64,000 nt of DNA, from assembly GCF_048403405.1 (NCBI RefSeq), contig NZ_CP183129.1; one strand, 5' to 3'. The position numbers were made by a program, and so were the translations under genes. Source of the DNA: Escherichia coli (GTDB taxonomy: Bacteria; Pseudomonadota; Gammaproteobacteria; Enterobacterales; Enterobacteriaceae). This document shows positions 14,465-64,000 of the stretch, one piece after another. Under the pieces are notes generated by a model. The model was given only the letters and a program-made list of their open reading frames with translations, was not told where the DNA came from and ran no database searches. Each line of letters starts with the position of its first letter. The stretch's first letter is position 1.

Positions 14465-14959
14465 TTATGAACAACTGTCCATGATTTCGTTTAAGAATGA
14501 AGAGAAATCACTAAACGAACTGAATATATTTTCGGTGCCAATATTATCTCTAATTTCAAAAAAGTTACTTTTAATGTCATAAGTAAATATTGAAATGCTA
14601 TCATCCCCGATCACTAACCGTTCTTGTAGATCAGGGTTTATGAAATCATCATTATTTCTATAAAATTCATTTACGGCAAAAAGGTTTTTAACTGAAGGTT
14701 CTGGAATCGAGAGGCTAAATAATCGTAATCCATTAGCTTCGAATCCATCCATTGCTCTTAAAAAAGTAAGATAATCAGGTTGATTCTTAAAAAAAATACT
14801 AACTTCATTACATAACTTCTCCAGGCAATTAGTTGAATTAGAATTAAATTCTATTTGGATTATACTTTCAATAAATGATTCCTTAAGCGGTGCTTCAAAT
14901 GGATAGTCTAAATCATTCATCATTTTTTTTAATTTATTTATTTGGGTCTTAGTCATCAT
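14465..14959 (-). CDS. Putative immunity protein for the upstream Hcp-nuclease effector (164 aa; likely intact equivalent of K-12 yrhA)
   Basis: Start ATG overlaps the stop of the upstream toxin ORF by 4 nt (ATGA); acidic, AT-rich; no recognisable catalytic motif. Immunity role inferred from context. Confidence 0.6.
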   Translation of the reverse strand: MMTKTQINKLKKMMNDLDYPFEAPLKESFIESIIQIEFNSNSTNCLEKLCNEVSIFFKNQPDYLTFLRAMDGFEANGLRLFSLSIPEPSVKNLFAVNEFYRNNDDFINPDLQERLVIGDDSISIFTYDIKSNFFEIRDNIGTENIFSSFSDFSSFLNEIMDSCS

Positions 14960-16134
14960 TTTGTGGGTTCCATAATATTTTTCATGGGAGGATAAATTGA
15001 GCCAGATGGAATGGCCCAGTGAGTGATTTTGCTTTCACCTACTAATATTCCCTTAGCTATTCGTGATTGCATGTTAGTAAAAACTTTATGATATGGTTCG
15101 TTTTCGATTAATACTAAATTTTCGAAATCGTTAGCACCACCATCATCTAGAGATAGTTTATGGTGAACATTATAATTTAGAGGAACATTGCCCTTTCTCA
15201 TTCTTAAAAGGTCTTCGGCGTTGAATCTTTCAGATGCTTCGGAGGTTTTTGCAAGTTTGATAAGAAAATTTTTTCTTACAGTTTTATTAAACTCCTTTCG
15301 TAAGTTAGCTAAGTCTTTTGAAGGTCTCTTAATGTATATTATTTCTATTATGTCTATACCATCAAGAAGTTTTTGTTGACCTCTAAGTTTGCCTAAGTAA
15401 CTATTTATTTCTGTATATGTATCAACATTAGAACGCTTTGTTAAAAGAATAGATGCTGTTGCTATCGCTATGCCCGCTGTTTTTTCATTTAGTATTTGAT
15501 CATAGCCTTTTATTGCATCTCCACCCAGTTTTTCCGCAGTATCTCTGAATCCTTCAATGTTCCCATTGTATACGCCACCAGCAGCAAGTAGCCTGCCAAT
15601 AGCTTTGCTGTTTAACGCTTTTAAACCATTATTTGTTTGGTTTTTTGAATTTGGTAAAACCAAACGGTTATAATTTTCAGGGAGTGCCAAATAGCTGAAC
15701 TCGGTATTTGCGATAAGATGTTGACAGAGGATAAATTCATAACTAACAGTTATTGTTTCTGTATCCAGTTGATTTTGAATGATCTGATGATGAATAGCCG
15801 ATAAAAAAGCGCCTCTTAGTTGTATATAATAATACTTTTCCCATCTACCAAATCTATTGATTCTATAAAAGTCAAATTCCATAAATAATTGCTCATTATT
15901 GTTAATGGAATTAATAAGTAATGGAGTGCTTTTATCAATTAATTTACAAAATGTCATACCCTGTAACTGTGAACCAAGTCCCGTATTAGTAATTCTATTT
16001 GCGAGTGAGAATGTAAATATTTCATCCTCATGCCCACTCTGCCAGCGATTACCTATAGATTCAGTAGTCCCACAACCTGCGGAGATGTTTCCTTGTTGTT
16101 CTCCCGTTACTGTCAGGTAAACAATATTACTCAT
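14956..16134 (-). CDS. yhhZ: Hcp-domain protein fused to a C-terminal HNH-type nuclease toxin domain (T6SS Hcp-effector, 392 aa)
   Basis: N-terminus is Hcp-like (MSNIVYLTVTGEQQGN...KLIDKSTPLL); C-terminus has NYNVHHKLSLDDGGANDFENLVLIENEPYH (HNH/colicin-DNase-like His motif); AT-rich. Confidence 0.75.
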   Translation of the reverse strand: MSNIVYLTVTGEQQGNISAGCGTTESIGNRWQSGHEDEIFTFSLANRITNTGLGSQLQGMTFCKLIDKSTPLLINSINNNEQLFMEFDFYRINRFGRWEKYYYIQLRGAFLSAIHHQIIQNQLDTETITVSYEFILCQHLIANTEFSYLALPENYNRLVLPNSKNQTNNGLKALNSKAIGRLLAAGGVYNGNIEGFRDTAEKLGGDAIKGYDQILNEKTAGIAIATASILLTKRSNVDTYTEINSYLGKLRGQQKLLDGIDIIEIIYIKRPSKDLANLRKEFNKTVRKNFLIKLAKTSEASERFNAEDLLRMRKGNVPLNYNVHHKLSLDDGGANDFENLVLIENEPYHKVFTNMQSRIAKGILVGESKITHWAIPSGSIYPPMKNIMEPTK

Positions 16135-22275: not shown

Positions 22276-22285
22276 TTACTGCGAC

Positions 22286-22315
22286 AAATTACTGCGAGCT
22301 TGCTCGCAGTAATTC
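22286..22315 (+). terminator. Perfect palindrome after gntU (terminator-like, no U-tract)
   Basis: ttactgcgagc-tt-gctcgcagtaa; also a direct repeat of attactgcga (22275-22284 and 22289-22298). Confidence 0.4.
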
Positions 22316-22412
22316 ATTTCTCTTTTCACCTGTCTTCATCTTTTTGATCTTTCTCGCAAAAAGACCGGAACATTATCCGTTCTAATCACTGCGTTAACGG
22401 ACGAGGGAGAAG

Positions 22413-24512
22413 ATGATGGAGAAACACGGAGCTGAATTGCTTTTACAGCGGATGTTAGGAAATACCACCGCTACTTTCAGGGAAGGGCAATGGGAAGCCA
22501 TAGATGCAGTGGTTAATCAGCGGCGAAAACTGCTGGTTGTACAGCGCACCGGCTGGGGGAAAAGTGCCGTGTACTTCATCGCCAGTAAAATCTTCCGAGA
22601 TCGCGGCGCTGGCCCGACAATTATCATCTCTCCTTTGCTTGCCCTGATGCGTAACCAGGTTGCCGCCGCTGAACGGTTAGGTATTACGGCTGAAACGTTG
22701 AATTCTACAAACAGGGAAGAATGGCAGCGCATTAGCGATAAGTTGCTGCAAGGTGAGGTCGATTGCTTGCTGGTTTCCCCGGAACGTTTGGCAAACCAGG
22801 ACTTTATCGAAACGGTTTTGTATCCTATAGCCGATCGTATTGGCTTGCTTGTTGTCGACGAGGCGCACTGCATCTCTGATTGGGGCCACGATTTTCGCCC
22901 GGATTACCGACGTATATTAGATATTTTGCGCCAACTGCCTGCGAATACCCCTGTTCTGGGTACAACCGCGACAGCGAATAACCGTGTTGTTGAGGATATC
23001 CGTCAGCAATTGGGTGACATTGTGATTCAGCGTGGAACGCTGGCTCGCGAAAGTTTGGCGCTTGATGCCTTAGTCTTAGGAGAACAGTCATCCCGTCTGG
23101 CATGGTTAGCAACGGTTATCCCTCAGTTTTCCAAATCGGGAATTGTTTATACCCTGACGACTCGCGATGCTGAACTTGTCGCCGAGTGGTTAAGGAAAAA
23201 TGGTATCAGTGCATTTGCTTACTACAGCGGCGTGACTTGTGAAGGCGCGGAAGATTCTAATACTGCCAGGGAATATCTGGAGCAGGCACTGCTGGCAAAT
23301 AAAATCAAAGTGCTGGTCGCGACGACGGCATTAGGTATGGGGTTTGATAAACCTGATTTAGGTTTCGTCATTCATTATCAGATGCCGGGGTCTATTGTCG
23401 GTTACTACCAACAGGTGGGGCGTGCCGGGCGTGCTATAGATTCCGCAGTTGGCATATTGCTTTGTGGTGGTGAAGACCGCGCTATTCATCAATTCTTCCG
23501 TGAAAGCGCCTTTCCTGCGGAGGCGCAAATTCATGAAATACTCAACGTACTTAGCGAGAATGACGGTCTTACCCTACGAGGCATTGAACAACGGACGAAT
23601 CTTCGTTATGGGCAAATAGAAAAAGCACTGAAATTATTGGTAGCGGAAAATCCATCGCCTGTGGTGTATACCGAGAAATTATGGCGCAGAACTATCGTCA
23701 GTTTTTCTCCTGATCATGAACGAATTAACCATTTGATGAATCAGAGAAAAAGTGAGCTGGCAGACGTTGAAAGCTATATCACGACCAAGGAGTGCAAAAT
23801 GCAATTTCTGCGCCGTGCACTCGATGAGCCAAGTGCCGAACGTTGTGGTAAATGTAGTAGTTGTCTTCAGCATCCGTTATTGTCGCCCGACATTGATAGC
23901 GGCTTACTCCATGCGGCAAATTTATTTATTAAACACGCTGACCTGCCGTTAAATCTCAATAAACAGGTGGCAGCTGGGGCTTTTACGCAATACGGATTTA
24001 AAGGGAACTTGCCTGCGGGTTTACAAGGATCTACGGGGCGAATCCTTTCTCGTTGGGGAGATTCCGGGTGGGGAAAGCAGGTAGCACAGGAGAAAAAAAC
24101 GGGGCGCTTCAGTGATGAGCTGGTAGAAGCATGTGCGGAAATGGTTCGCCAACGCTGGAATCCGCATCCTGAACCAACCTGGGTATGCTGCGTTCCTTCA
24201 TTAAGACACCTCGACCTGGTTCCTGATTTTGCCCGGCGACTGGCGGCGAAACTTGGCTTACCTTTTATTGATGCCATTGAAAAAGTCGTGGACAATCCAC
24301 CGCAGAAAATGCAGCAAAACCGTTTTCACCAGTGTCAAAATCTCGACGGGGCGTTTGTGATTACCCCTCCTTTGATGCCAGGTCCGGCGTTGCTGGTTGA
24401 CGATATCGTGGATTCTGCATGGACGCTGACAGTTCTGACAGCACTGTTACGCCAGGCAGGTTGCCCGACGGTTTATCCTCTTGCCCTTGCTTCTACCTCG
24501 GTAAAAAATTGA
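22413..24512 (+). CDS. RecQ-family DNA helicase with C-terminal PRTase-like extension (699 aa); candidate toxin/effector of a PsyrTA/RqlHI-like module
   Basis: Motif 0 FREGQWEAI, Walker A TGWGKS, DEAH box VVDEAHCISDWGHDFRPDY, LGTTATA, HYQMPGSIVGYYQQVGRAGR; Zn-binding Cys cluster CKMQFLRRALDEPSAERCGKCSSC; C-terminal LLVDDIVDSAWTLTVL resembles a degenerate PRPP-binding loop. RBS GAGGGAGAAG before ATG. Not present at this locus in K-12. Confidence 0.85.
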   Translation: MMEKHGAELLLQRMLGNTTATFREGQWEAIDAVVNQRRKLLVVQRTGWGKSAVYFIASKIFRDRGAGPTIIISPLLALMRNQVAAAERLGITAETLNSTNREEWQRISDKLLQGEVDCLLVSPERLANQDFIETVLYPIADRIGLLVVDEAHCISDWGHDFRPDYRRILDILRQLPANTPVLGTTATANNRVVEDIRQQLGDIVIQRGTLARESLALDALVLGEQSSRLAWLATVIPQFSKSGIVYTLTTRDAELVAEWLRKNGISAFAYYSGVTCEGAEDSNTAREYLEQALLANKIKVLVATTALGMGFDKPDLGFVIHYQMPGSIVGYYQQVGRAGRAIDSAVGILLCGGEDRAIHQFFRESAFPAEAQIHEILNVLSENDGLTLRGIEQRTNLRYGQIEKALKLLVAENPSPVVYTEKLWRRTIVSFSPDHERINHLMNQRKSELADVESYITTKECKMQFLRRALDEPSAERCGKCSSCLQHPLLSPDIDSGLLHAANLFIKHADLPLNLNKQVAAGAFTQYGFKGNLPAGLQGSTGRILSRWGDSGWGKQVAQEKKTGRFSDELVEACAEMVRQRWNPHPEPTWVCCVPSLRHLDLVPDFARRLAAKLGLPFIDAIEKVVDNPPQKMQQNRFHQCQNLDGAFVITPPLMPGPALLVDDIVDSAWTLTVLTALLRQAGCPTVYPLALASTSVKN

Positions 24513-25714
24513 TGAATCTTTCAGCCAATGCACAAGCAACCCTCCTGCTAACCAGCGATTTTTCTCGCGCGGCGGCGAGTGAGTATAAACCTCTTAGTAA
24601 TAGTGAATGGGGGAAGTTTGCATTATGGCTGAAGCACCAACGTATCAGTCCCGCCGATCTTCTGGTGCCGCAACCGCAAGAGAAACTTACAGGCTGGAGC
24701 GATCCGCGTATTTCTCAGGAGCGTATTCTTGGCTTGCTGGCGCGTGGTCATAGTCTGGCGTTGGCGGTAGATAAGTGGCAACGCGCCGGATTATGGATCT
24801 TAACCCGCGGAGATGCCGATTATCCCGTTCGCTTGAAAAACCGATTGCGAACGGATGCTCCTCCCGTTTTATTTGGCTGCGGGAATAAAGCATTATTGCA
24901 AGCGGAAGGTATGGCGATTGTTGGCTCGCGAGATGCTCCGACTGCCGATTTGCGCTATACCCAACAACTGGCAGCGAAACTGGCCCAACAGGGGATTTGC
25001 GTTATCTCTGGTGGTGCGCGAGGTATTGATGAATGTGCAATGGCGTCGGCACTGGAGGCCGGGGGAACTGCCGTTGGCGTATTAGCTGATAGTTTGTTAA
25101 AAACAAGCACGTTAGTGAAATGGCGTAAAGGGCTTATAGCAGGCAACCTGGTGTTGATTTCACCGTTTTACCCAGAGGTACGTTTCACTGTCGGCAATGC
25201 GATGGCGCGGAATAAATATATTTATTGCCTTGCTGAAAGCGCAATGGTTGTACGTGCGGGAATGACCGGTGGAACGATAACCGGAGCGATGGAGGCGTTA
25301 AAACATCAGTGGCTGCCTGTTCTGGTTAAACCAAATCAGGATGTGCAATCAGCCAATTCACGTTTAGTAGAAAATGGGGCGTCATGGAGTGCTGAACAGG
25401 CTGAGAATGTGACGATCAGACTGCCAGATGTTCCTGGGCTGATGTATGACAGAGCACTCCGTAACGCTCAACCAGAATTGTTTTCGCTGCACGAAGATGA
25501 CGCAAATTACGCAGTAATGCCCGCGCATACCCCTGTCGATTTTTATCAACTCTTTGTGGCGGAACTGGCGATCCTTGCAAAGGAATCGATAAGTATTGAA
25601 AGGCTGGCGTCTTGTACTGGTTTAACCATCGAACAAATTAGTGTGTGGCTGAACCGCGCAGAAGAAGAGGGAAGGGTTATCCGATTGGGCGAAGGTCATT
25701 ATCAGTTCAGGTAA
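24512..25714 (+). CDS. DprA/Smf-like (SLOG-superfamily) protein (400 aa); candidate antitoxin/partner
   Basis: ORF 24419..25714; ATG at 24512 (MNLSANAQ...) overlaps the helicase TGA by 1 nt. DprA hallmarks: DADYPVRLKNRLRTDAPPVLFGCGNKALL, Rossmann segment IVGSRDAPT...ISGGARGIDECAM, C-terminal winged-helix-like region. Confidence 0.85.
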   Translation: MNLSANAQATLLLTSDFSRAAASEYKPLSNSEWGKFALWLKHQRISPADLLVPQPQEKLTGWSDPRISQERILGLLARGHSLALAVDKWQRAGLWILTRGDADYPVRLKNRLRTDAPPVLFGCGNKALLQAEGMAIVGSRDAPTADLRYTQQLAAKLAQQGICVISGGARGIDECAMASALEAGGTAVGVLADSLLKTSTLVKWRKGLIAGNLVLISPFYPEVRFTVGNAMARNKYIYCLAESAMVVRAGMTGGTITGAMEALKHQWLPVLVKPNQDVQSANSRLVENGASWSAEQAENVTIRLPDVPGLMYDRALRNAQPELFSLHEDDANYAVMPAHTPVDFYQLFVAELAILAKESISIERLASCTGLTIEQISVWLNRAEEEGRVIRLGEGHYQFR

Positions 25715-25716
25715 TA

Positions 25717-25754
25717 AAACAGGTGCCGCGTCTGGTTGTGTGCAGCACCTGTTT
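25717..25754. terminator. Hairpin between the convergent DprA-like gene and yhgN
   Basis: aaacaggtgc-(loop)-gcacctgttt inverted repeat. Confidence 0.45.
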
Positions 25755-25759
25755 GAACC

Positions 25760-26353
25760 TTACCCCTTCATCCACATTCGAATCCCGTCGAGGAACATCT
25801 GGGTTGCCATCATCACCAGAATCAATCCCATCAGGCGTTCAAGTGCATTCACCCCTTTCTCGCCCAGCAGACGTAAAAATAGCGAAGACTGTAGCAGGAT
25901 GACAAAGGTGCCGCCCCAGGCCAGTAGCAGAGCAATTACCAGATGTCCCATCTGATTCGGGTACTGATGAGACAACAACATCAGCGTGGCGAGAATAGTC
26001 GGCCCGGCGACTAACGGAATTGCCAACGGCACGATAAACGGCTCTTCACCTGCCGGAAGCCCGCTGCTATTTCCTGAAGCACTGGGGAAAATCATCTTAA
26101 TGGCGATCAGAAACAGAATGATGCCGCCAGAAATGGAGACGGTTTCTGCCCGCAGGCTAAGAAATGCCAGAATTTTCTCACCCGCAAACAGGAACACCAG
26201 CATCACCAGGAGAGCAATAAGCAACTCTCGCACCATGATTGCCCGCCGTCTTTTCGGTTCAGTATGTTTCAGTACGGACATGAAAATAGGTAGGTTTCCG
26301 AGCGGATCCATAATCAGGATCAATAAAACTGCTGCAGAAATGATTTCATTCAT
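25760..26353 (-). CDS. yhgN: MarC-family inner membrane protein YhgN
   Basis: 197 aa hydrophobic protein MNEIISAAVLLILIMDPLGNLPIFMSVL... Confidence 0.88.
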   Translation of the reverse strand: MNEIISAAVLLILIMDPLGNLPIFMSVLKHTEPKRRRAIMVRELLIALLVMLVFLFAGEKILAFLSLRAETVSISGGIILFLIAIKMIFPSASGNSSGLPAGEEPFIVPLAIPLVAGPTILATLMLLSHQYPNQMGHLVIALLLAWGGTFVILLQSSLFLRLLGEKGVNALERLMGLILVMMATQMFLDGIRMWMKG

Positions 26354-37773: not shown

Positions 37774-38478
37774 ATGAAATTCAATCTATCTAATTTATCC
37801 GCAGTTTTACTCGCATCAGGTATGCTGATGTCAACTGCGGTAACCGCTGCGCCAGGCGATGCATCACAATTTGGTGGTGCGGATACAGACTGGAGCACCG
37901 TTGATTATCCAAAACTCACCGATATGGATAGCAACACCGATGCGATGGGCGGAAACATCCGCTTTACTGGTCGTGTGGTTAAAGCGACGTGTAAGGTTGC
38001 TACAGAATCGAAACAGATTGAAGTGGTACTGCCAGTCGTACCTTCTAACGCTTTCACGGGCATTGATACCGAAGCAACGGGTGCCAGTAACCAGACTGAC
38101 TTCAACATTAAATTGACTGATTGTAGCAATACGGACAGTCAAAATATTGAATTTCGTTTTACTGGCGTAGCAGACGGTGCCAACCAGACGCTTGCCAATG
38201 AAGTGGAAGGAGCTGCTGATGCTGATGGTACTGGCGAAGCGGGAGCTACGGGTGTAGGGATTCGTATTTATTCTAAAAACACGACAACTGATGGCCTGAT
38301 TAAGCTGAACACACAAACTCCCCAGGGGAGTAGTTCTTCAGCAGCCTACGTGATTCCTGGCGATGCAGCCACTCATGATTTTACTGCGGCATTTACCGCG
38401 GGCTATGCTCAGAACGGTAGTACCGTTGCACCAGGTCTGGTGAAATCAACGGCAAGTTTCGTCGTGCTGTACGAATAA
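37774..38478 (+). CDS. Fimbrial major subunit (chaperone-usher pilin, 234 aa)
   Basis: Signal peptide MKFNLSNLSAVLLASGMLMSTAVTAA; conserved Cys pair; C-terminal SFVVLYE resembles a pilin donor-strand-acceptor terminus; RBS aaggaaagg. Confidence 0.8.
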   Translation: MKFNLSNLSAVLLASGMLMSTAVTAAPGDASQFGGADTDWSTVDYPKLTDMDSNTDAMGGNIRFTGRVVKATCKVATESKQIEVVLPVVPSNAFTGIDTEATGASNQTDFNIKLTDCSNTDSQNIEFRFTGVADGANQTLANEVEGAADADGTGEAGATGVGIRIYSKNTTTDGLIKLNTQTPQGSSSSAAYVIPGDAATHDFTAAFTAGYAQNGSTVAPGLVKSTASFVVLYE

Positions 38479-38598
38479 TTACAGCAAGATAATTTCAGGT
38501 TACAGTTACTTGTAACCTGAAATTAATATTACATGTTTATTTGTAATAAATAGACATGCATCAGTAATTACAATTAATTTCATCTACAAGGATGCAGT

Positions 38599-39351
38599 AT
38601 GAGATGGATTTCAAAAAATAAATGTTTTTCGAATAGAAACATTAATTCTTTGCTGAAGACCCAATATATCATAAGGGCCGGTGCTCTATTTTTACTATCC
38701 GCCATATCTATCAATGCTATTGCTGCGGGTGGCTTCGGTCTTGGTTCTACGCGTCTGGTTTATCCATCTGACAGTCAGCAAATTACGCTAAGTGTACAGA
38801 ATGGTGGGGCTAACACCAGCTATTTAATCCAGTCATGGATTGATGACAATCAAAGCAGTAAAAAAAGTCAGGATTTTGTGGTTACGCCTCCTTTATTTAT
38901 GTTACCAACGCGAAAAGAAGCCTCATTGAGGATAATGTTTATTGGTAAATCACAGTTACCGACTGATCGCGAAACATTATTCTGGATGAATGTGAAAGCG
39001 ATTCCGCCAACGGATGAGAAGAATACCCAGAAAAACACGTTACAACTGGCGTTACAAAACAGAATTAAATTATTTTACCGTCCGACTAATTTACCCGTTC
39101 AAGCTGGTAAAGCACGGGATATGCTGCGATTTAAATACGAAGGTAAACAGCTAAGAGTCATTAACCCTTCTCCCTATTATCTGACGGTGACTGGAATCAG
39201 GGTGCAAGGGGCAAAATTACCCAATGCGTTTGTTCCACCGAAAAGTGACGTAACAGTGTCTTCACCAGTGATGCTAGCCGGTGAAATTACTTATCAAACT
39301 ATCAATGATTACGGTGCCACAACGGCCAGGCAAAAGGGAACGATGCAATAA
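38599..39351 (+). CDS. Periplasmic fimbrial chaperone (PapD-like)
   Basis: 250 aa; conserved chaperone segments LGSTRLVYPSDSQ and NRIKLFYRP. Confidence 0.85.
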   Translation: MRWISKNKCFSNRNINSLLKTQYIIRAGALFLLSAISINAIAAGGFGLGSTRLVYPSDSQQITLSVQNGGANTSYLIQSWIDDNQSSKKSQDFVVTPPLFMLPTRKEASLRIMFIGKSQLPTDRETLFWMNVKAIPPTDEKNTQKNTLQLALQNRIKLFYRPTNLPVQAGKARDMLRFKYEGKQLRVINPSPYYLTVTGIRVQGAKLPNAFVPPKSDVTVSSPVMLAGEITYQTINDYGATTARQKGTMQ

Positions 39352-39392
39352 ACCTGGAAGATTAAAACGTTAAAGCAACTCAGGTCAGGGAT

Positions 39393-41984
39393 ATGAACCT
39401 AAAGCTCAGAAAACTCGAACACAGGATGGCAAGGCAGAAGCAGATGAGGCGGTGTATGCTGCTTCTACTGACACTTTTGCCTGCGTGTTCAGTGGCGGGT
39501 ATGCGCTTTAACCCTGCATTCCTGTCGGGTGATACAGAAGCTGTTGCTGATTTATCTCGTTTTGAGAAAGGGATGACATATCTACCTGGTAGTTATGAGG
39601 TTGAAATATGGGTCAATGATTCGCCTTTGACATCACGTAAGGTTACTTTCAAAGCTGATGAGCAGAATCAGTTGATCCCCTGTTTTTCGCTCGATGAGTT
39701 AGTTACTTTAGGAATTAACAAAAGTGCATTGCCGGAACAGGCGCAAGCAGAGGGAAATAATTGTCTCGATTTACGTATATGGTTCGCAGAAGTTCAATAC
39801 ACTCCTGAACTGGATGCGCAACGACTCAAACTGACCTTTCCGCAGGCAATATTAAAGCATGAAGCCCGTGGTTATATTCCACCTGAGGAATGGGATAATG
39901 GTATCCCGGCCATTCTTATTAATTATGATTTTTCTGGCAACAGTGATCGTGGAGACTATGCGTCTGATAGTTATTATTTAAATCTCCGTTCAGGTTTAAA
40001 TTTAGGGGCGTGGCGTTTTCGTGATTATTCTACATGGAGTCGTTCAGGTAATTCACCGGGTAAAATTGCACATGTGAGTAGTACGTTACAACGAGTAATT
40101 ATTCCTTTTAAAAGTGAATTAACACTAGGTGATACCTGGTCTTCATCGGATGTTTTCGACAGTGTGAGTATTCGTGGTGCTAAACTTGAATCCGATGAAA
40201 ACATGCTACCCGATAGCCAAAGTGGTTTTGCCCCCACTGTGCGCGGTATTGCTAAAAGCAATGCTCAGGTAACGATCAAACAAAATGGCTATGTTATTTA
40301 TCAGACATATACTCCACCGGGACCCTTTGAAATCAACGATCTGAACCCTACGTCTTCCGCTGGGGATTTGGAAGTTACGATCAAAGAGTCTGATAATTCC
40401 GAAACTATCTATACCATTCCTTACGCCGCTGTTCCCATTCTTCAACGCGAAGGGCATATTAAATATTCGGCAACTGCCGGTAAATATCGTAGCAATAGCT
40501 ATAATCAAAACAGTCCGAATGTCTTTCAAGGAGATTTGATTTGGGGGTTACCCTGGGATATTACCGCCTACGGAGGGATGCAATACTCAAATAATTATCG
40601 GGCAATAGCACTCGGGCTTGGGTTCAACCTTGGTATGTTTGGTGCGACGTCATTTGATTTAACGCAAGCCAATAGCACGCTTGCCGATGGCAGTAAACAT
40701 CAAGGGCAATCGTACCGTTTCCTATATTCAAAATCGTTAGTGCAGACAGGTACGGCTTTTCAGATTATTGGTTATCGCTATTCGACGGAGGGATTTTATT
40801 CGTTGAGTGATACCACATACAAACAAATGTCGGGTACGGTTATCGATCCAGATACCCTTAATGAAAAAGACTATGTTTATAACTGGAATGATTTTTATAA
40901 TTTACGTTATAACAAAAGAGGAAAGTTTCAGGCAAATATATCGCAACCATTGGGCGAATATGGCTCTATGTATTTGGCGGCAAGTCAACAAACTTACTGG
41001 AATACGAATAATAAAGATACCTTGTATCAGGTCGGCTATAATACGAGTGTACATGGGATTTATTTAAATATTGCTTATAATTATAGTAAGTCACCAGGTT
41101 CAGATGCGGACAGAATCTTATCCGTAAATGTCTCATTGCCGATCAGCAATTGGTTATCACCAGCTGTCGATGGGCGTACTGCGACAAATTCTATGACAGC
41201 AACTTATGGTTATAGTCAGGATAATAGCGGTCATGTAAATCAGTATGCCGGAGTATCTGGATCGCTGCTGGAACAACATAATCTCAACTATAATATTCAA
41301 CAAAATTTTGCCAACCAGAATAATGGCGAAAATGGCTCGGTAGGGATAAATTACCGTGGTACATATGGTTCACTAAATTCTGGATACAGCTACGATAATA
41401 ATGGTAACCAGCAATTTAACTATGGTTTAAGTGGTGCCCTGGTTATTCACGAAAATGGTCTCACGTTAAGCCAGCCGTTAGGAGAAACAAATATACTGAT
41501 AAAAGCACCTGGGGCAAACAATGTAAATGTGGAACGCGGAACGGGGGTTAAAACAGACTGGCGTGGCTATGCTGTCGTACCTTATGCCACGGAATATCGG
41601 CGTAATAATATCTCTTTAGACCCTATGTCTATGAGTATGCATACAGAATTAGATGCTACTACTATGGAAGTGATACCCAGCAAAGGTGCTTTAGTTCGTG
41701 CTGAGTTTAATGCACATGTCGGTATTCGAGGTTTATTTAATGTTCATTATCGTAATAAACCAGTTCCATTTGGTGCGACGGTCAGTGTACCCACTGAGGG
41801 GACAACTCAGATTACAGGAATAGTGGGTGACAGTGGACAGGTTTATCTCTCCGGTTTGCCTTTACAAGGCATAATAAATATACAGTGGGGAGAAAGTTCT
41901 TATCAGCAATGTCGGGCAAACTATCAATTACCGGAAAGTGAGTTGGATAATGCCATTAGCTATGCAAATCTGGAGTGCCGCTAA
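39393..41984 (+). CDS. Outer membrane fimbrial usher protein
   Basis: 863 aa; N-terminal FNPAFL usher motif; beta-rich, size typical of ushers. The exact start within the first ~35 codons is uncertain. Confidence 0.88.
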   Translation: MNLKLRKLEHRMARQKQMRRCMLLLLTLLPACSVAGMRFNPAFLSGDTEAVADLSRFEKGMTYLPGSYEVEIWVNDSPLTSRKVTFKADEQNQLIPCFSLDELVTLGINKSALPEQAQAEGNNCLDLRIWFAEVQYTPELDAQRLKLTFPQAILKHEARGYIPPEEWDNGIPAILINYDFSGNSDRGDYASDSYYLNLRSGLNLGAWRFRDYSTWSRSGNSPGKIAHVSSTLQRVIIPFKSELTLGDTWSSSDVFDSVSIRGAKLESDENMLPDSQSGFAPTVRGIAKSNAQVTIKQNGYVIYQTYTPPGPFEINDLNPTSSAGDLEVTIKESDNSETIYTIPYAAVPILQREGHIKYSATAGKYRSNSYNQNSPNVFQGDLIWGLPWDITAYGGMQYSNNYRAIALGLGFNLGMFGATSFDLTQANSTLADGSKHQGQSYRFLYSKSLVQTGTAFQIIGYRYSTEGFYSLSDTTYKQMSGTVIDPDTLNEKDYVYNWNDFYNLRYNKRGKFQANISQPLGEYGSMYLAASQQTYWNTNNKDTLYQVGYNTSVHGIYLNIAYNYSKSPGSDADRILSVNVSLPISNWLSPAVDGRTATNSMTATYGYSQDNSGHVNQYAGVSGSLLEQHNLNYNIQQNFANQNNGENGSVGINYRGTYGSLNSGYSYDNNGNQQFNYGLSGALVIHENGLTLSQPLGETNILIKAPGANNVNVERGTGVKTDWRGYAVVPYATEYRRNNISLDPMSMSMHTELDATTMEVIPSKGALVRAEFNAHVGIRGLFNVHYRNKPVPFGATVSVPTEGTTQITGIVGDSGQVYLSGLPLQGIINIQWGESSYQQCRANYQLPESELDNAISYANLECR

Positions 41985-42547
41985 TGAATATATTACAAAA
42001 ATTTATTCTATTAATGTTTAGATCATTGTTCATGATGGTGATTTCATATAACGCACTGGCTAACGATACTGTAGTGGTCACATTTACAGGACAATTATTA
42101 GCGAAAACGTGTGATATTACAACTGGAAGTAAAGACCAGCCAGTAAACATGGGAACTTATGACGTCAATGATTTTTTGAATGTAGGGGATGTTTCTGGCA
42201 GCCATACATTTACGATCAATCTGGAAGGATGTCCTACAACAACCAGTACTGTTTATAGTTCAGGAGTAAGTGCTAATGTGCAGTTTACCGGGGATGCTGA
42301 TGCTATAAATACCACTTTATTACGCCTTACTTCCAGCGCGGATAGTGCAACTGGAGTGGGCATCGAAATTTTAGACAGTAATGATAAAATTATAGCAATT
42401 AATAGTGAATCAGGATTCAAAGAGTTAATTTTAAATAATAATGGCGATGCCAGTTTAACCTTTAAACTCCGCTATAAGTCAACTCAGCAAAACGTACATG
42501 CGGGACAGGCGAACGCACTATTGTACTTTGATATAGACTATCAGTGA
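41984..42547 (+). CDS. Fimbrial minor subunit
   Basis: ORF 41975..42547 begins at GTG; ATG at 41984 overlaps the usher stop and gives signal peptide MNILQKFILLMFRSLFMMVISYNALA; pilin-like Cys pair. Confidence 0.78.
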   Translation: MNILQKFILLMFRSLFMMVISYNALANDTVVVTFTGQLLAKTCDITTGSKDQPVNMGTYDVNDFLNVGDVSGSHTFTINLEGCPTTTSTVYSSGVSANVQFTGDADAINTTLLRLTSSADSATGVGIEILDSNDKIIAINSESGFKELILNNNGDASLTFKLRYKSTQQNVHAGQANALLYFDIDYQ

Positions 42548-42554
42548 GGTTAAT

Positions 42555-43079
42555 ATGACACGATATTGGAATTTAATTGCCCTATTATTCTCTGTGATAT
42601 CTATGTCATCCATTGCTGATGATACAACGCATGCAGGTGTTGTACGCATCGAAGGAATTATAACAGCAAAGACTTGTATTGTTGCCGATGAGTCTAAAAA
42701 TTTCACAGTTAACATGCCTGATGTTCCCAGTTATACGGTGAGAAATTCAGGGAGTGTTACTGAAAAAATTGGCTTCTCTTTAAAGTTAACCCGTTGTGGC
42801 AGTGATGTCAGTAATGCCAATGTCACGTTTGATGGAATACCAGTTAGTGAAGACGCAGCCCTATATAAACTGGAAGAGGGCTCAGTCGATGGGTTAGCAC
42901 TGGCTATTTTTGATAACAACAGACAAAGTATTAGTAATGGTATAAAGAGTACAAGTTATGCCCTTACACCATTGGTAGATAATACATTGCATTTCTTTGC
43001 TGCTTATAAAGCTATAAAAAATGATGTACAACCAGGAGATGCGAATGCATCAGTTTCCTTTATCGTCACTTATGATTAA
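42555..43079 (+). CDS. Fimbrial minor subunit
   Basis: 174 aa with signal peptide MTRYWNLIALLFSVISMSSIA; pilin-like C-terminus SFIVTYD. Confidence 0.78.
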   Translation: MTRYWNLIALLFSVISMSSIADDTTHAGVVRIEGIITAKTCIVADESKNFTVNMPDVPSYTVRNSGSVTEKIGFSLKLTRCGSDVSNANVTFDGIPVSEDAALYKLEEGSVDGLALAIFDNNRQSISNGIKSTSYALTPLVDNTLHFFAAYKAIKNDVQPGDANASVSFIVTYD

Positions 43080-43824
43080 CGTGCTGATATGCATTTTAAT
43101 ATGTTGCACAAATGCGCAGGCAGGAGTTGTTGTTGGCGGTACTCGTTTTGTTTACCCAGAAAAGCAGTCATCAATTTCGGTCGAGCTTAAAAATACTGCC
43201 AGTAAAGATATGCTGGTTAAAATTTCCGTGACACCTGATGATGGACGTCAGTTAAAAGGGACACTGGAATCCCAGCCTTTACTTCCAGATAAGGCGTTTA
43301 TTGCCACACCACCATTATTGGTACTTAAACAAGATAAAAATACCAAAATAAGAATCAATCGCGTGGGGGGGCAGTTACCTATAGATCGTGAGAGTTTATT
43401 TATACTGAATATTGCAGCGTTACCTGCTCAGGAACAAAACTCACAGCTTAAGAATGAAAATCAACTCCAGGTGGCTGTACGTAATAGGATGAAAATATTT
43501 TACCGCCCAGAGACGTTATCAGGTAATCCACTTGACGCTTATCAACAGTTACGCTGGTCGCGAAACAATGAAGCTGTCACCGTTTTTAACCCTACGCCCT
43601 GGTATGTGACACTCTATAATTTATCTATTGATGGTAAAAGCATAAATGGTGGCATGGTTGCACCATTTAGTCATCGCCAACAGGATTGGTGTCAGCGGCA
43701 AGGATATTGTGAGATTAACTGGCAAACACTAGATCTTTACAATAATGCCTTACCCGTATGGAGCGTAAAATTAAATGTTTTACAAAATAATGCTATTATG
43801 GGTGCAGTAGCGATACATGGATAA
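43045..43824 (+). CDS. Second periplasmic fimbrial chaperone (PapD-like)
   Basis: ORF 43021..43824; ATG at 43045 follows AGGAGA and gives MHQFPLSSLMINVLICILICCTNAQA; motifs GGTRFVYPEKQ and NRMKIFYRP. Confidence 0.82.
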   Translation: MHQFPLSSLMINVLICILICCTNAQAGVVVGGTRFVYPEKQSSISVELKNTASKDMLVKISVTPDDGRQLKGTLESQPLLPDKAFIATPPLLVLKQDKNTKIRINRVGGQLPIDRESLFILNIAALPAQEQNSQLKNENQLQVAVRNRMKIFYRPETLSGNPLDAYQQLRWSRNNEAVTVFNPTPWYVTLYNLSIDGKSINGGMVAPFSHRQQDWCQRQGYCEINWQTLDLYNNALPVWSVKLNVLQNNAIMGAVAIHG

Positions 43825-43834
43825 CTGGAGAAGC

Positions 43835-44968
43835 ATGATGCTTACTTATTTTTGGGGGAATATAAAAGCAATTTGTATATTGTTTGTTCTTTTAGTCAGT
43901 AGCTGCTATAACATAGTATATGCTGAAGATATGGGACGGGATCGCGCCTTTTGTTATCCTGGTGCACCAGGTAATAATACTACTCCTGCGACATTTTCTT
44001 ATAATTTTGGTACGGTAATTGTCTCAGATGTTAATAATAATTCGCCTGGGACAGTATTACCCTCGCAGGACTGGAAAATAGGGCATTATAAGGCTTATTG
44101 TAATTCTCTGGATGATTATGAGGTTTATTTTTCTGGTGTTTCTGGGATTGATCCGTCAGGAGCGTCTGGTGATCATCAGGGGAGCGATATATTTATTCCT
44201 TTGACTCATGAAATATCTGTCTCGACACATGTAAAGCTCTATAATAAAAATGGCACAATGACAGATAAGGCAGTACCTTTTGACAACTATAGCACCAATT
44301 ATCCAGCAGACAGAAGTAAACCATCAAGTTGGGCCTCAGGAACAGAAGGTTATATAAAAATCAGACTTGATAAAAAAATAATATCCGATATCTCAATAAA
44401 TAACGTATTGCTGGTTTCTTTGTATGTCAGCCAGTTTCCAACAGAGCACGGACCAATTCCAGTATTTAATGCTTATATTGGCAACTTAAATATTGAAGTT
44501 CCACAAGGTTGCACAATTAATGAGGGAACTAGTTTTACCGTTAATATGCCGGATGTCTGGGCCAGCGAATTAAGTCGGGCTGGTGCTGGAGTAAAACCAA
44601 CAGGTATTTCTCCAGTGGCAACCACTATTCCGATAAATTGTACGAACAAAGATATTGATGCCGTAATGACGCTGGTTTTCGATGGCAATATTTCATCAAC
44701 GAGAGATGTTAATGGTCGGCAAAGCATTATTCAGGCGGAGGATAACCCCGACGTTGGCATTATGATTATGGATAGCCAACAGGAATCCGTAGACTTAAAT
44801 GCATTGGCTGCGCATGTTGGTGTGCCATTTAAGTTAGTTGAAAACCAGGCTGAGTCAGCTCAGACGGCAGATGTGACTTTTCTGTCTCTCCCTGTAAGTA
44901 CCACAGGGCGACGCCCTGCTGCAGGCCGTTATAATGCCCTGGCTGTTTTGCGGGTGGAATACCAATGA
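43835..44968 (+). CDS. Putative fimbrial tip adhesin (two-domain pilin-like, about 377 aa)
   Basis: ORF 43817..44968; start likely MMLTYFWGNIKAICILFVLLVSS at 43835; size and terminal position fit a lectin-plus-pilin adhesin. Start uncertain by up to 6 codons. Confidence 0.7.
   Translation: MMLTYFWGNIKAICILFVLLVSSCYNIVYAEDMGRDRAFCYPGAPGNNTTPATFSYNFGTVIVSDVNNNSPGTVLPSQDWKIGHYKAYCNSLDDYEVYFSGVSGIDPSGASGDHQGSDIFIPLTHEISVSTHVKLYNKNGTMTDKAVPFDNYSTNYPADRSKPSSWASGTEGYIKIRLDKKIISDISINNVLLVSLYVSQFPTEHGPIPVFNAYIGNLNIEVPQGCTINEGTSFTVNMPDVWASELSRAGAGVKPTGISPVATTIPINCTNKDIDAVMTLVFDGNISSTRDVNGRQSIIQAEDNPDVGIMIMDSQQESVDLNALAAHVGVPFKLVENQAESAQTADVTFLSLPVSTTGRRPAAGRYNALAVLRVEYQ

Positions 44969-63364: not shown

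Positions 63365-64000
<636 letters not shown>

Follow-up and report, generated by a model that had tools for sequence, protein, structure and literature searches.

A probable rqlH-rqlI (PsyrTA) operon in an Escherichia coli chromosome, with a RecQ-like helicase predicted to end in a ComF-like phosphoribosyltransferase domain

The window analyzed here comprised 64,000 nt of an Escherichia coli chromosome (NZ_CP183129.1; GCF_048403405.1), with the gene order yhhX, yhhW, gntR, gntK, gntU, two extra genes, yhgN, asd, and glgB. The two extra genes were predicted to encode a RecQ-like helicase, whose C terminus holds a phosphoribosyltransferase (PRTase) domain, and a DprA-like protein, and the locus is very likely the rqlH-rqlI operon that E. 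coli carries on its chromosome, known too as the PsyrTA toxin-antitoxin and anti-phage system. The pair and its parts were as follows.

22413..24512, plus strand: rqlH (psyrT), RecQ-like helicase ending in a PRTase domain, 699 aa when read from the first ATG (PADLOC PsyrT; TIGR00614; RefSeq WP_001445780.1)
22473..23483, plus strand: superfamily 2 (SF2) RecQ-type ATPase/helicase core, aa ~21-357 (Pfam DEAD at 24-195, 5e-25; Helicase_C at 240-341, 4e-13; TIGR01389 recQ on aa 10-366)
23742..23867, plus strand: RecQ-type tetracysteine zinc-binding module, aa 444-485 (Pfam RecQ_Zn_bind, E=0.0014)
23880..24509, plus strand: predicted ComF-like type I PRTase domain with an N-terminal hood, aa 490-699 (profile matches, AlphaFold2 model, Foldseek)
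24282..24356, plus strand: conserved segment KVVDNPPQKMQQNRFHQCQNLDGAF in a flexible loop, aa 624-648, in common with the GntX/ComF motif R..N-L-x-x-A-F
24390..24425, plus strand: phosphoribosyl pyrophosphate (PRPP) loop LLVDDIVDSAWT, aa 660-671, in which the published D663 is Asp number two
24512..25714, plus strand: rqlI (psyrA), DprA-like putative antitoxin, 400 aa (PADLOC PsyrA; Pfam DNA_processg_A; SLOG cluster4)

The translation of rqlH ended in PGPALLVDDIVDSAWTLTVLTALLRQAGCPTVYPLALASTSVKN, and positions 23900-24512 corresponded to residues ~497-699. Nearly the whole protein (aa 3-698) matched positions 4-687 of the 689 positions of the PADLOC PsyrT model (PDLC03928; E=0, 1068 bits). A second ATG at 22416, which gives 698 aa, is the start used by RefSeq and by the published numbering. 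Counted from this codon, the GKS (49-51), DEAH (149), and DIVD (664) motifs of the 699-aa open reading frame (ORF) become K49, D148, and D663, and because these numbers coincide with those of the RqlH published from extraintestinal pathogenic E. coli (ExPEC), the two were considered the same protein. The RqlH-RqlI pair of ExPEC F11 (Sberro 2013; Russell & Mulvey 2015; Millman 2022) belongs to the same species and forms the same two-gene operon, with the same RecQ core, linker, four-cysteine zinc module, PRTase domain, and 400-aa DprA-like partner. The window pair differs from it in nothing substantial, being a rarer allele with a RefSeq partner start placed 31 codons farther upstream. The helicase-PRTase fusion, the mutational importance of the VDD/DIVD motif, the contact with the DprA-like partner, and the analogy to ComF and DprA are already known, all having been published between 2012 and 2022.

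The ATG of rqlI overlapped the TGA stop codon of rqlH (TGATG). A DprA partner next to the helicase had been named in a first-pass annotation of the window, made by a model from the sequence without database searches, and this assignment was borne out by matches to Pfam DNA_processg_A (E=8.9e-50) and SLOG cluster4. Scores against the DprA equivalogs were far under their cutoffs (TIGR00732, 102.5 bits against 191.15; PRK10736, 80.2 against 495), so RqlI was regarded as a DprA-like paralogue and not as DprA itself. The PADLOC PsyrA model (PDLC03927) matched at 2.2e-201, with aa 32-431 of the long ORF aligned to profile positions 1-397 of 398. In the RefSeq/PGAP annotation, the partner starts at ATG 24419 (431 aa) and overlaps rqlH by 94 nt. 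Because the PsyrA profile opens at residue 32 of this long ORF and the published RqlI has 400 aa (PMC4670107), ATG 24512 was taken as the true start, and the RefSeq/PGAP annotation of rqlI is probably 31 codons too long.

RqlH exceeded the cutoff of the NCBIfam model TIGR00614 recQ_fam (252.8 bits; cutoff, 219.8) and fell under that of the canonical recQ equivalog (296 bits; cutoff, 640). Its zinc-module cysteines (Cys461, 478, 481, and 484; spacing C-x16-C-x2-C-x2-C) lay beyond a linker of ~90 to 100 residues that parts Helicase_C, ending at aa 341, from RecQ_Zn_bind. No Pfam match to HRDC or RQC was found in the full-length protein. With a RecQ-family core, a linker and tetracysteine Zn module, and a C-terminal ComF-like PRTase module, RqlH was placed in the RqlH clade. 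The founding member of this architecture is Mycobacterium smegmatis RqlH, described as a RecQ-like ATPase with an RqlH-specific linker, a tetracysteine Zn domain, and a ComF-like PRTase C-domain, without HRDC (PMC3378886), and the zinc module of the window protein agrees with the Zn domain described there. The ComF-like nature of the C-domain was reported in the same study, in which the 3'-5' helicase activity was housed in aa 1-505, the C-domain not being needed for unwinding (Ordonez, Unciuleac & Shuman 2012, PMC3378886). Unlike the window gene, M. smegmatis rqlH, compared here by its description in the literature, has no DprA-like partner, as is the case for many Gram-positive genes (PMC4670107).

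A PRTase-like domain at the C terminus of the helicase had also been claimed in the first-pass annotation, with structure prediction and Foldseek proposed as a check. Pfam Pribosyltran (PF00156) matched at E=0.0087 on full RqlH and at E=0.0011 on the C-domain alone, and a phmmer comparison of the single sequence with PDB sequences was marginal (best E=0.28). A search with residues 490-699 returned 852 homologues, 52 of which were used to build a family alignment and profile. All but two of these (50/52) matched Pribosyltran at E<=0.001, with a best value of 1.2e-9. The family profile matched the PRPP loop of Bacillus subtilis PRPP synthetase (E=8.4e-4); ComFC or ShosT chains in the PDB were not recovered by this profile at E<=1. 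A further comparison was made with a gene at the end of the window, a ComF-like gntX already pointed out in the first-pass annotation and present there as a partial copy.

63365..64000, minus strand: gntX, housekeeping ComF-family PRTase-like gene, cut by the window end, with a translation containing VIVDDVVTTGSTVAEI; a comparison gene, not part of the system

Pairwise BLASTP of the C-domain against this GntX gave 26% identity over 76 aa (E=2e-5), and hhalign of the C-domain family against it gave 92% probability (E=6e-7, 66 columns), reaching across the PRPP loop as well as the R..N-L-x-x-A-F segment before it. The resemblance to PRTases, weak to marginal on a single sequence and solid once relatives were included, was confirmed to be beyond chance on these sequence comparisons.

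The AlphaFold2 model of residues 490-699 was confident, with a predicted local distance difference test (pLDDT) score of 85.6 and a predicted template modeling (pTM) score of 0.83. When this model was compared with the PDB by Foldseek, all 50 of the 50 matches listed were PRTases, among which Helicobacter pylori ComFC (7p0h) ranked 3rd and ShosT ranked 22nd. A central parallel sheet and a PRPP loop with four hydrophobic positions, two acidic residues, and [ST]-[AG]-x-T place the C-domain among the type I PRTases. A C terminus of the RQC/HRDC or winged-helix type was ruled out, there being no such Pfam match and PRTases alone at the top of the fold searches. Pfam, the family profile, hhalign, and AlphaFold2/Foldseek agreed on the PRTase assignment, and the motif likeness was supported by the profile searches. 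In the predicted structure, the PRT domain appears nearest to ComFC among solved structures, and the PRT domain of PsyrT would be structurally of the ComFC type rather than the ShosT type, which is the sole nuance added to the published picture.

The PRPP loop bears on another part of the first-pass annotation, where DSAWT in place of TTG(S/A)T had been read as a mark of a binding-only or inactive fold. D174, D175, D178, S179, W181, and T182 (numbering of the 210-aa piece) were invariant across the 52 homologues. The loop's counterpart in the alignment was DDIIDTAGT from B. subtilis PRPP synthetase, an active enzyme whose canonical loop has the form D-[ST]-[AG]-x-T, and D-S-A-W-T was therefore regarded as a conservative form of a canonical loop. 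The substitution DIVD663EVME and the point mutation D663A remove toxicity, so the loop is functionally required (PMC4670107). These observations do not support the reading of DSAWT as a mark of inactivity, and a decayed PRPP loop was ruled out on motif grounds; the loop of RqlH is intact and canonical, and its part in toxicity may lie in catalysis or in binding. The flexible-loop segment, which aligned with ...RLRKRNLKNAF of GntX, was likewise conserved (K135, N139, Q142, K143, N147, C152, N154, L155, D156, G157, and F159 were invariant in the 52 homologues), and pLDDT was low across it, as expected of a mobile loop.

The helicase and its partner had been said to mirror the ComFA/ComFC/DprA trio that processes single-stranded DNA (ssDNA) in competence systems. 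The parallel in PRTase fold and DprA domain is real, and it was drawn explicitly in the discussion of Russell & Mulvey 2015 (PMC4670107) and repeated by Iyer et al. 2017. The equation with ComFA did not stand, the helicase being of the RecQ family. ComFC (structure 7P0H; in E. coli, the homologue of ComF is GntX) is free-standing and has an N-terminal finger, whereas the window PRT domain is fused to a helicase and preceded by a four-cysteine module that, from its match to RecQ_Zn_bind (E=0.0014) and its spacing, is probably of the RecQ type. NF008616 GntX was the top model for the C-domain, yet it scored 15.3 bits against a cutoff of 304; because of this score and the fusion to a 490-aa helicase, the C-domain was considered ComF-like in fold and motifs but not a member of the ComF family. 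The proposal that the cassette serves as a repurposed transformation-like module was not supported, the phenotype of RqlHI in experiments being one of toxin-antitoxin activity, genotoxicity, and phage defense and not of DNA uptake (PMC4670107; Millman 2022). Spelled out, this proposal equates the helicase with ComFA, a catalytically dead PRT fold with ComFC, and the partner with DprA, so that the pair would handle incoming ssDNA and not act as a toxin. Such a module would accord with the closeness of the PRT domain to ComFC and GntX, with the DprA domain of the partner, with the binding of PRPP, nucleoside monophosphates (NMPs), and ssDNA by the PRT domain of ComFC, whose role may be catalytic or regulatory (PMC9005727), and with the analogy as raised in the two papers cited above. 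It is nevertheless improbable in view of a PRPP loop that is canonical and invariant with no sign of decay, of the toxicity of RqlH and the antitoxin action of RqlI (PMC4670107), of a RecQ-type helicase that matched no ComFA model, and of scores well below cutoff for both GntX (15 against 304 bits) and DprA (102 against 191). E. coli, moreover, is not known as naturally transformable, and it has gntX already in the window and a canonical dprA according to PMC4670107.

Toxicity, its neutralization, and phage protection are reported for the F11 orthologue and the PsyrTA construct and are predicted for the window allele. In E. coli F11, RqlH by itself is genotoxic, causing SOS induction, filamentation, and mutagenesis, and its toxicity is abolished by deletion of the PRTase domain (aa 509-690), by DIVD663EVME, or by D663A (Russell & Mulvey 2015, PMC4670107). 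In the same study, the isolated PRTase domain was nontoxic, the rest of the protein being needed, and the helicase-dead variants K49A and D148A worsened the damage. RqlI neutralized toxicity; its binding to RqlH is direct and runs through the PRTase domain (aa 509-690), without which the two did not coprecipitate (PMC4670107). Deletion of rqlI in native ExPEC F11, at native expression, led to RqlH-dependent DNA stress and to fitness defects in vivo (PMC4670107). Millman et al. 2022 listed PsyrTA (RqlHI) as a phage defense system on the basis of heterologous expression and noted its DprA-like antitoxin and PRTase toxin; a psyrA deletion construct could not be transformed or obtained (Millman 2022 preprint).

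The combination of a PRTase toxin that needs its PRPP site with a DprA-like antitoxin is found also in ShosTA, which consists of the PRTase-pyrophosphatase toxin ShosT and the DprA-like ShosA (PMC12961424). By analogy, an active PRT enzyme in RqlH might consume PRPP or make an aberrant nucleotide and so starve purine and pyrimidine synthesis, with DNA damage arising indirectly and the helicase serving as a mere regulatory or sensor appendage. ShosT must bind PRPP to be toxic and reportedly upsets purine metabolism (PMC12961424), PsyrA is homologous to ShosA (3.9e-27 against the ShosA model), and the PRPP loop of RqlH is intact, with toxicity lost in D663A (PMC4670107). The lone PRT domain of RqlH is nontoxic, contrary to what would be predicted for a free metabolic enzyme (PMC4670107); RqlH lacks the fused pyrophosphatase domain of ShosT; and its C-domain, in which the PADLOC ShosT models detected no sequence match, was not assigned to the ShosT family, with its pyrophosphatase and non-canonical PRT architecture, and was structurally less similar to ShosT than to ComFC. 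A PRPP-draining mechanism of this kind is thus the main rival to a DNA-directed toxin, albeit an unlikely one.

The DNA-directed reading is that the RqlH helicase tracks along ssDNA or along replication or recombination intermediates and would thereby deliver to DNA a PRT domain that binds PRPP or nucleotides. As long as the cell is uninfected, RqlI would cap this domain. During infection, phage-induced ssDNA or a perturbation of RecA/SSB might titrate or release the DprA-like RqlI, as is suggested by analogy to ShosTA, whose related antitoxin ShosA acts through ssDNA and RecA (PMC12961424). The freed, helicase-tethered PRT domain could then cause DNA damage or replication arrest and end in abortive infection. 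Taken whole, from delivery by the helicase through capping and release to abortive infection, this mechanism has about an even chance of being right. Several points weigh against it. The titration or release step is borrowed from ShosTA and not from RqlHI. Catalysis, PRPP binding, and an acceptor are putative for all RqlH PRT domains, as are the trigger and the downstream lesion of toxicity; PMC4670107 and PMC3378886 report no transferase assay of RqlH, and in the literature searched, to mid-2026, no paper was found on RqlH PRT catalysis, on its acceptor or ligand, or on the trigger for release from RqlI in phage infection. When PsyrTA was deleted or overexpressed in the native E. coli host NILS69, no protection from the tested phages could be detected, so defense by PsyrTA may be narrow or context dependent. 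Finally, some RqlH homologues, such as those of mycobacteria, lack RqlI (PMC4670107, PMC3378886), which argues for an additional, nontoxic housekeeping role of the helicase-PRT fusion.

The distribution and setting of the operon bear on this last point. The rqlHI segment (window 22300-25800) was carried by 1651 of the 5426 complete E. coli genomes compared, at 95 to 100% identity, always on the chromosome and annotated as a RecQ-family helicase and DprA. Only 12 of the 1651 carriers were >=99% identical to the window copy, the remaining 1639 being at 95 to 99%, so the window copy was considered a minority allele of rqlHI. In comparison with K-12, the operon occupied a discrete insert.

22276..25759, no strand assigned: 3,484-bp rqlHI-carrying segment replacing the 56-bp gntU-yhgN spacer of K-12 (K-12 map, homology breakpoints)

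Homology to K-12 ended directly after the gntU stop codon and returned at the yhgN stop codon, and because it broke right at these two codons, the segment was interpreted as a clean replacement. No integrase, insertion sequence (IS), or direct repeats were found at the insert borders. A hairpin with a 12-bp stem lay directly 3' of gntU (22287-22314), and apart from this hairpin, the scan upstream of rqlH gave no match to a sigma-70 consensus promoter. Among 72,556 plasmid records, the C-domain occurred in 11, haloarchaeal plasmids included, nearly always under a RecQ-family helicase annotation, and no phage record contained it. On the strength of the borders, the phage records, and the few plasmid records, an origin of the insert in a mobile element was ruled out.

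One of the plasmid matches was from E. coli (NZ_OX030731.1, 38870-39478), a divergent RqlH-type C-domain with 61% identity that is annotated as a RecQ-family helicase. The chromosome with the neighboring accession, NZ_OX030728.1, had an rqlHI copy identical to that of the window, so that a single strain may hold two systems of the PsyrTA type.

Three distant rqlH homologues were located on long metagenomic contigs, with 54 to 60% identity in the C-domain (L003, 2191-6978; L004, 2213-6971; L005, 3651-7089). In each of the three, the DprA-like gene was intact and 1 to 2 nt downstream, and rqlH was broken in the part that joins its helicase core to its PRT domain, twice by insertion of a DDE transposase (IS) and once by an in-frame TAG. 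These loci were selected for short products, so that the frequency of disruption is meaningless and the conserved DprA-like neighbor is the informative part. Short "stand-alone" PRT-domain homologues as free ComFC-like toxins were accordingly ruled out, the genes being rqlH split by an IS or a nonsense codon.

A chiefly housekeeping function, in which RqlH is a DNA repair or recombination helicase as proposed for the mycobacterial protein, the PRT domain is a nucleotide-sensing module, and toxin-antitoxin and defense phenotypes are by-products of overexpression, would fit the wide occurrence of RqlH homologues, often without RqlI (PMC4670107, PMC3378886) and nearly always annotated as chromosomal RecQ-family helicases. 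The near absence of the domain from plasmid records and its absence from phage records, the lack of a flanking integrase or IS at the E. coli insert, and the lack of a phage phenotype upon deletion in NILS69 point the same way. Such a function is hard to reconcile with the DNA stress and fitness defects of the F11 rqlI deletion at native expression (PMC4670107), with the unobtainable psyrA deletion (Millman 2022 preprint), and with the occurrence of the pair as a discrete, accessory insert that only ~30% of E. coli genomes possess; the splitting of rqlH by an IS in two of the three metagenomic loci, picked for short products as they were, fits counterselection of a toxin. For the E. coli pair, a chiefly housekeeping function was therefore judged rather improbable.

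Two other accessory regions were observed in the window. A low-GC (0.39-0.46) chaperone-usher fimbrial operon of seven genes lay downstream of the glg genes (37774-44968, plus strand), with products comprising a major subunit, a chaperone, an 863-aa usher, two minor subunits, a second chaperone, and a FimH/LpfD-like adhesin. An accessory fimbrial island is its probable identity, and it may correspond to the "auf" cluster of ExPEC. A stretch of very low GC content (0.315) on the minus strand (14465-16134) encoded a 392-aa protein with an Hcp1/TssD domain in residues 1-147 and a C-terminal extension of ~245 aa, followed by a 164-aa YrhA-family protein. This stretch looks like an orphan Hcp-toxin and immunity pair of the yhhZ/yrhA type.

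For the rqlHI family, kinship of the PRT domain with ComFC rather than with ShosT, as the predicted structure suggests, would sharpen slightly which experiments are suited to the system and leaves its classification unchanged.

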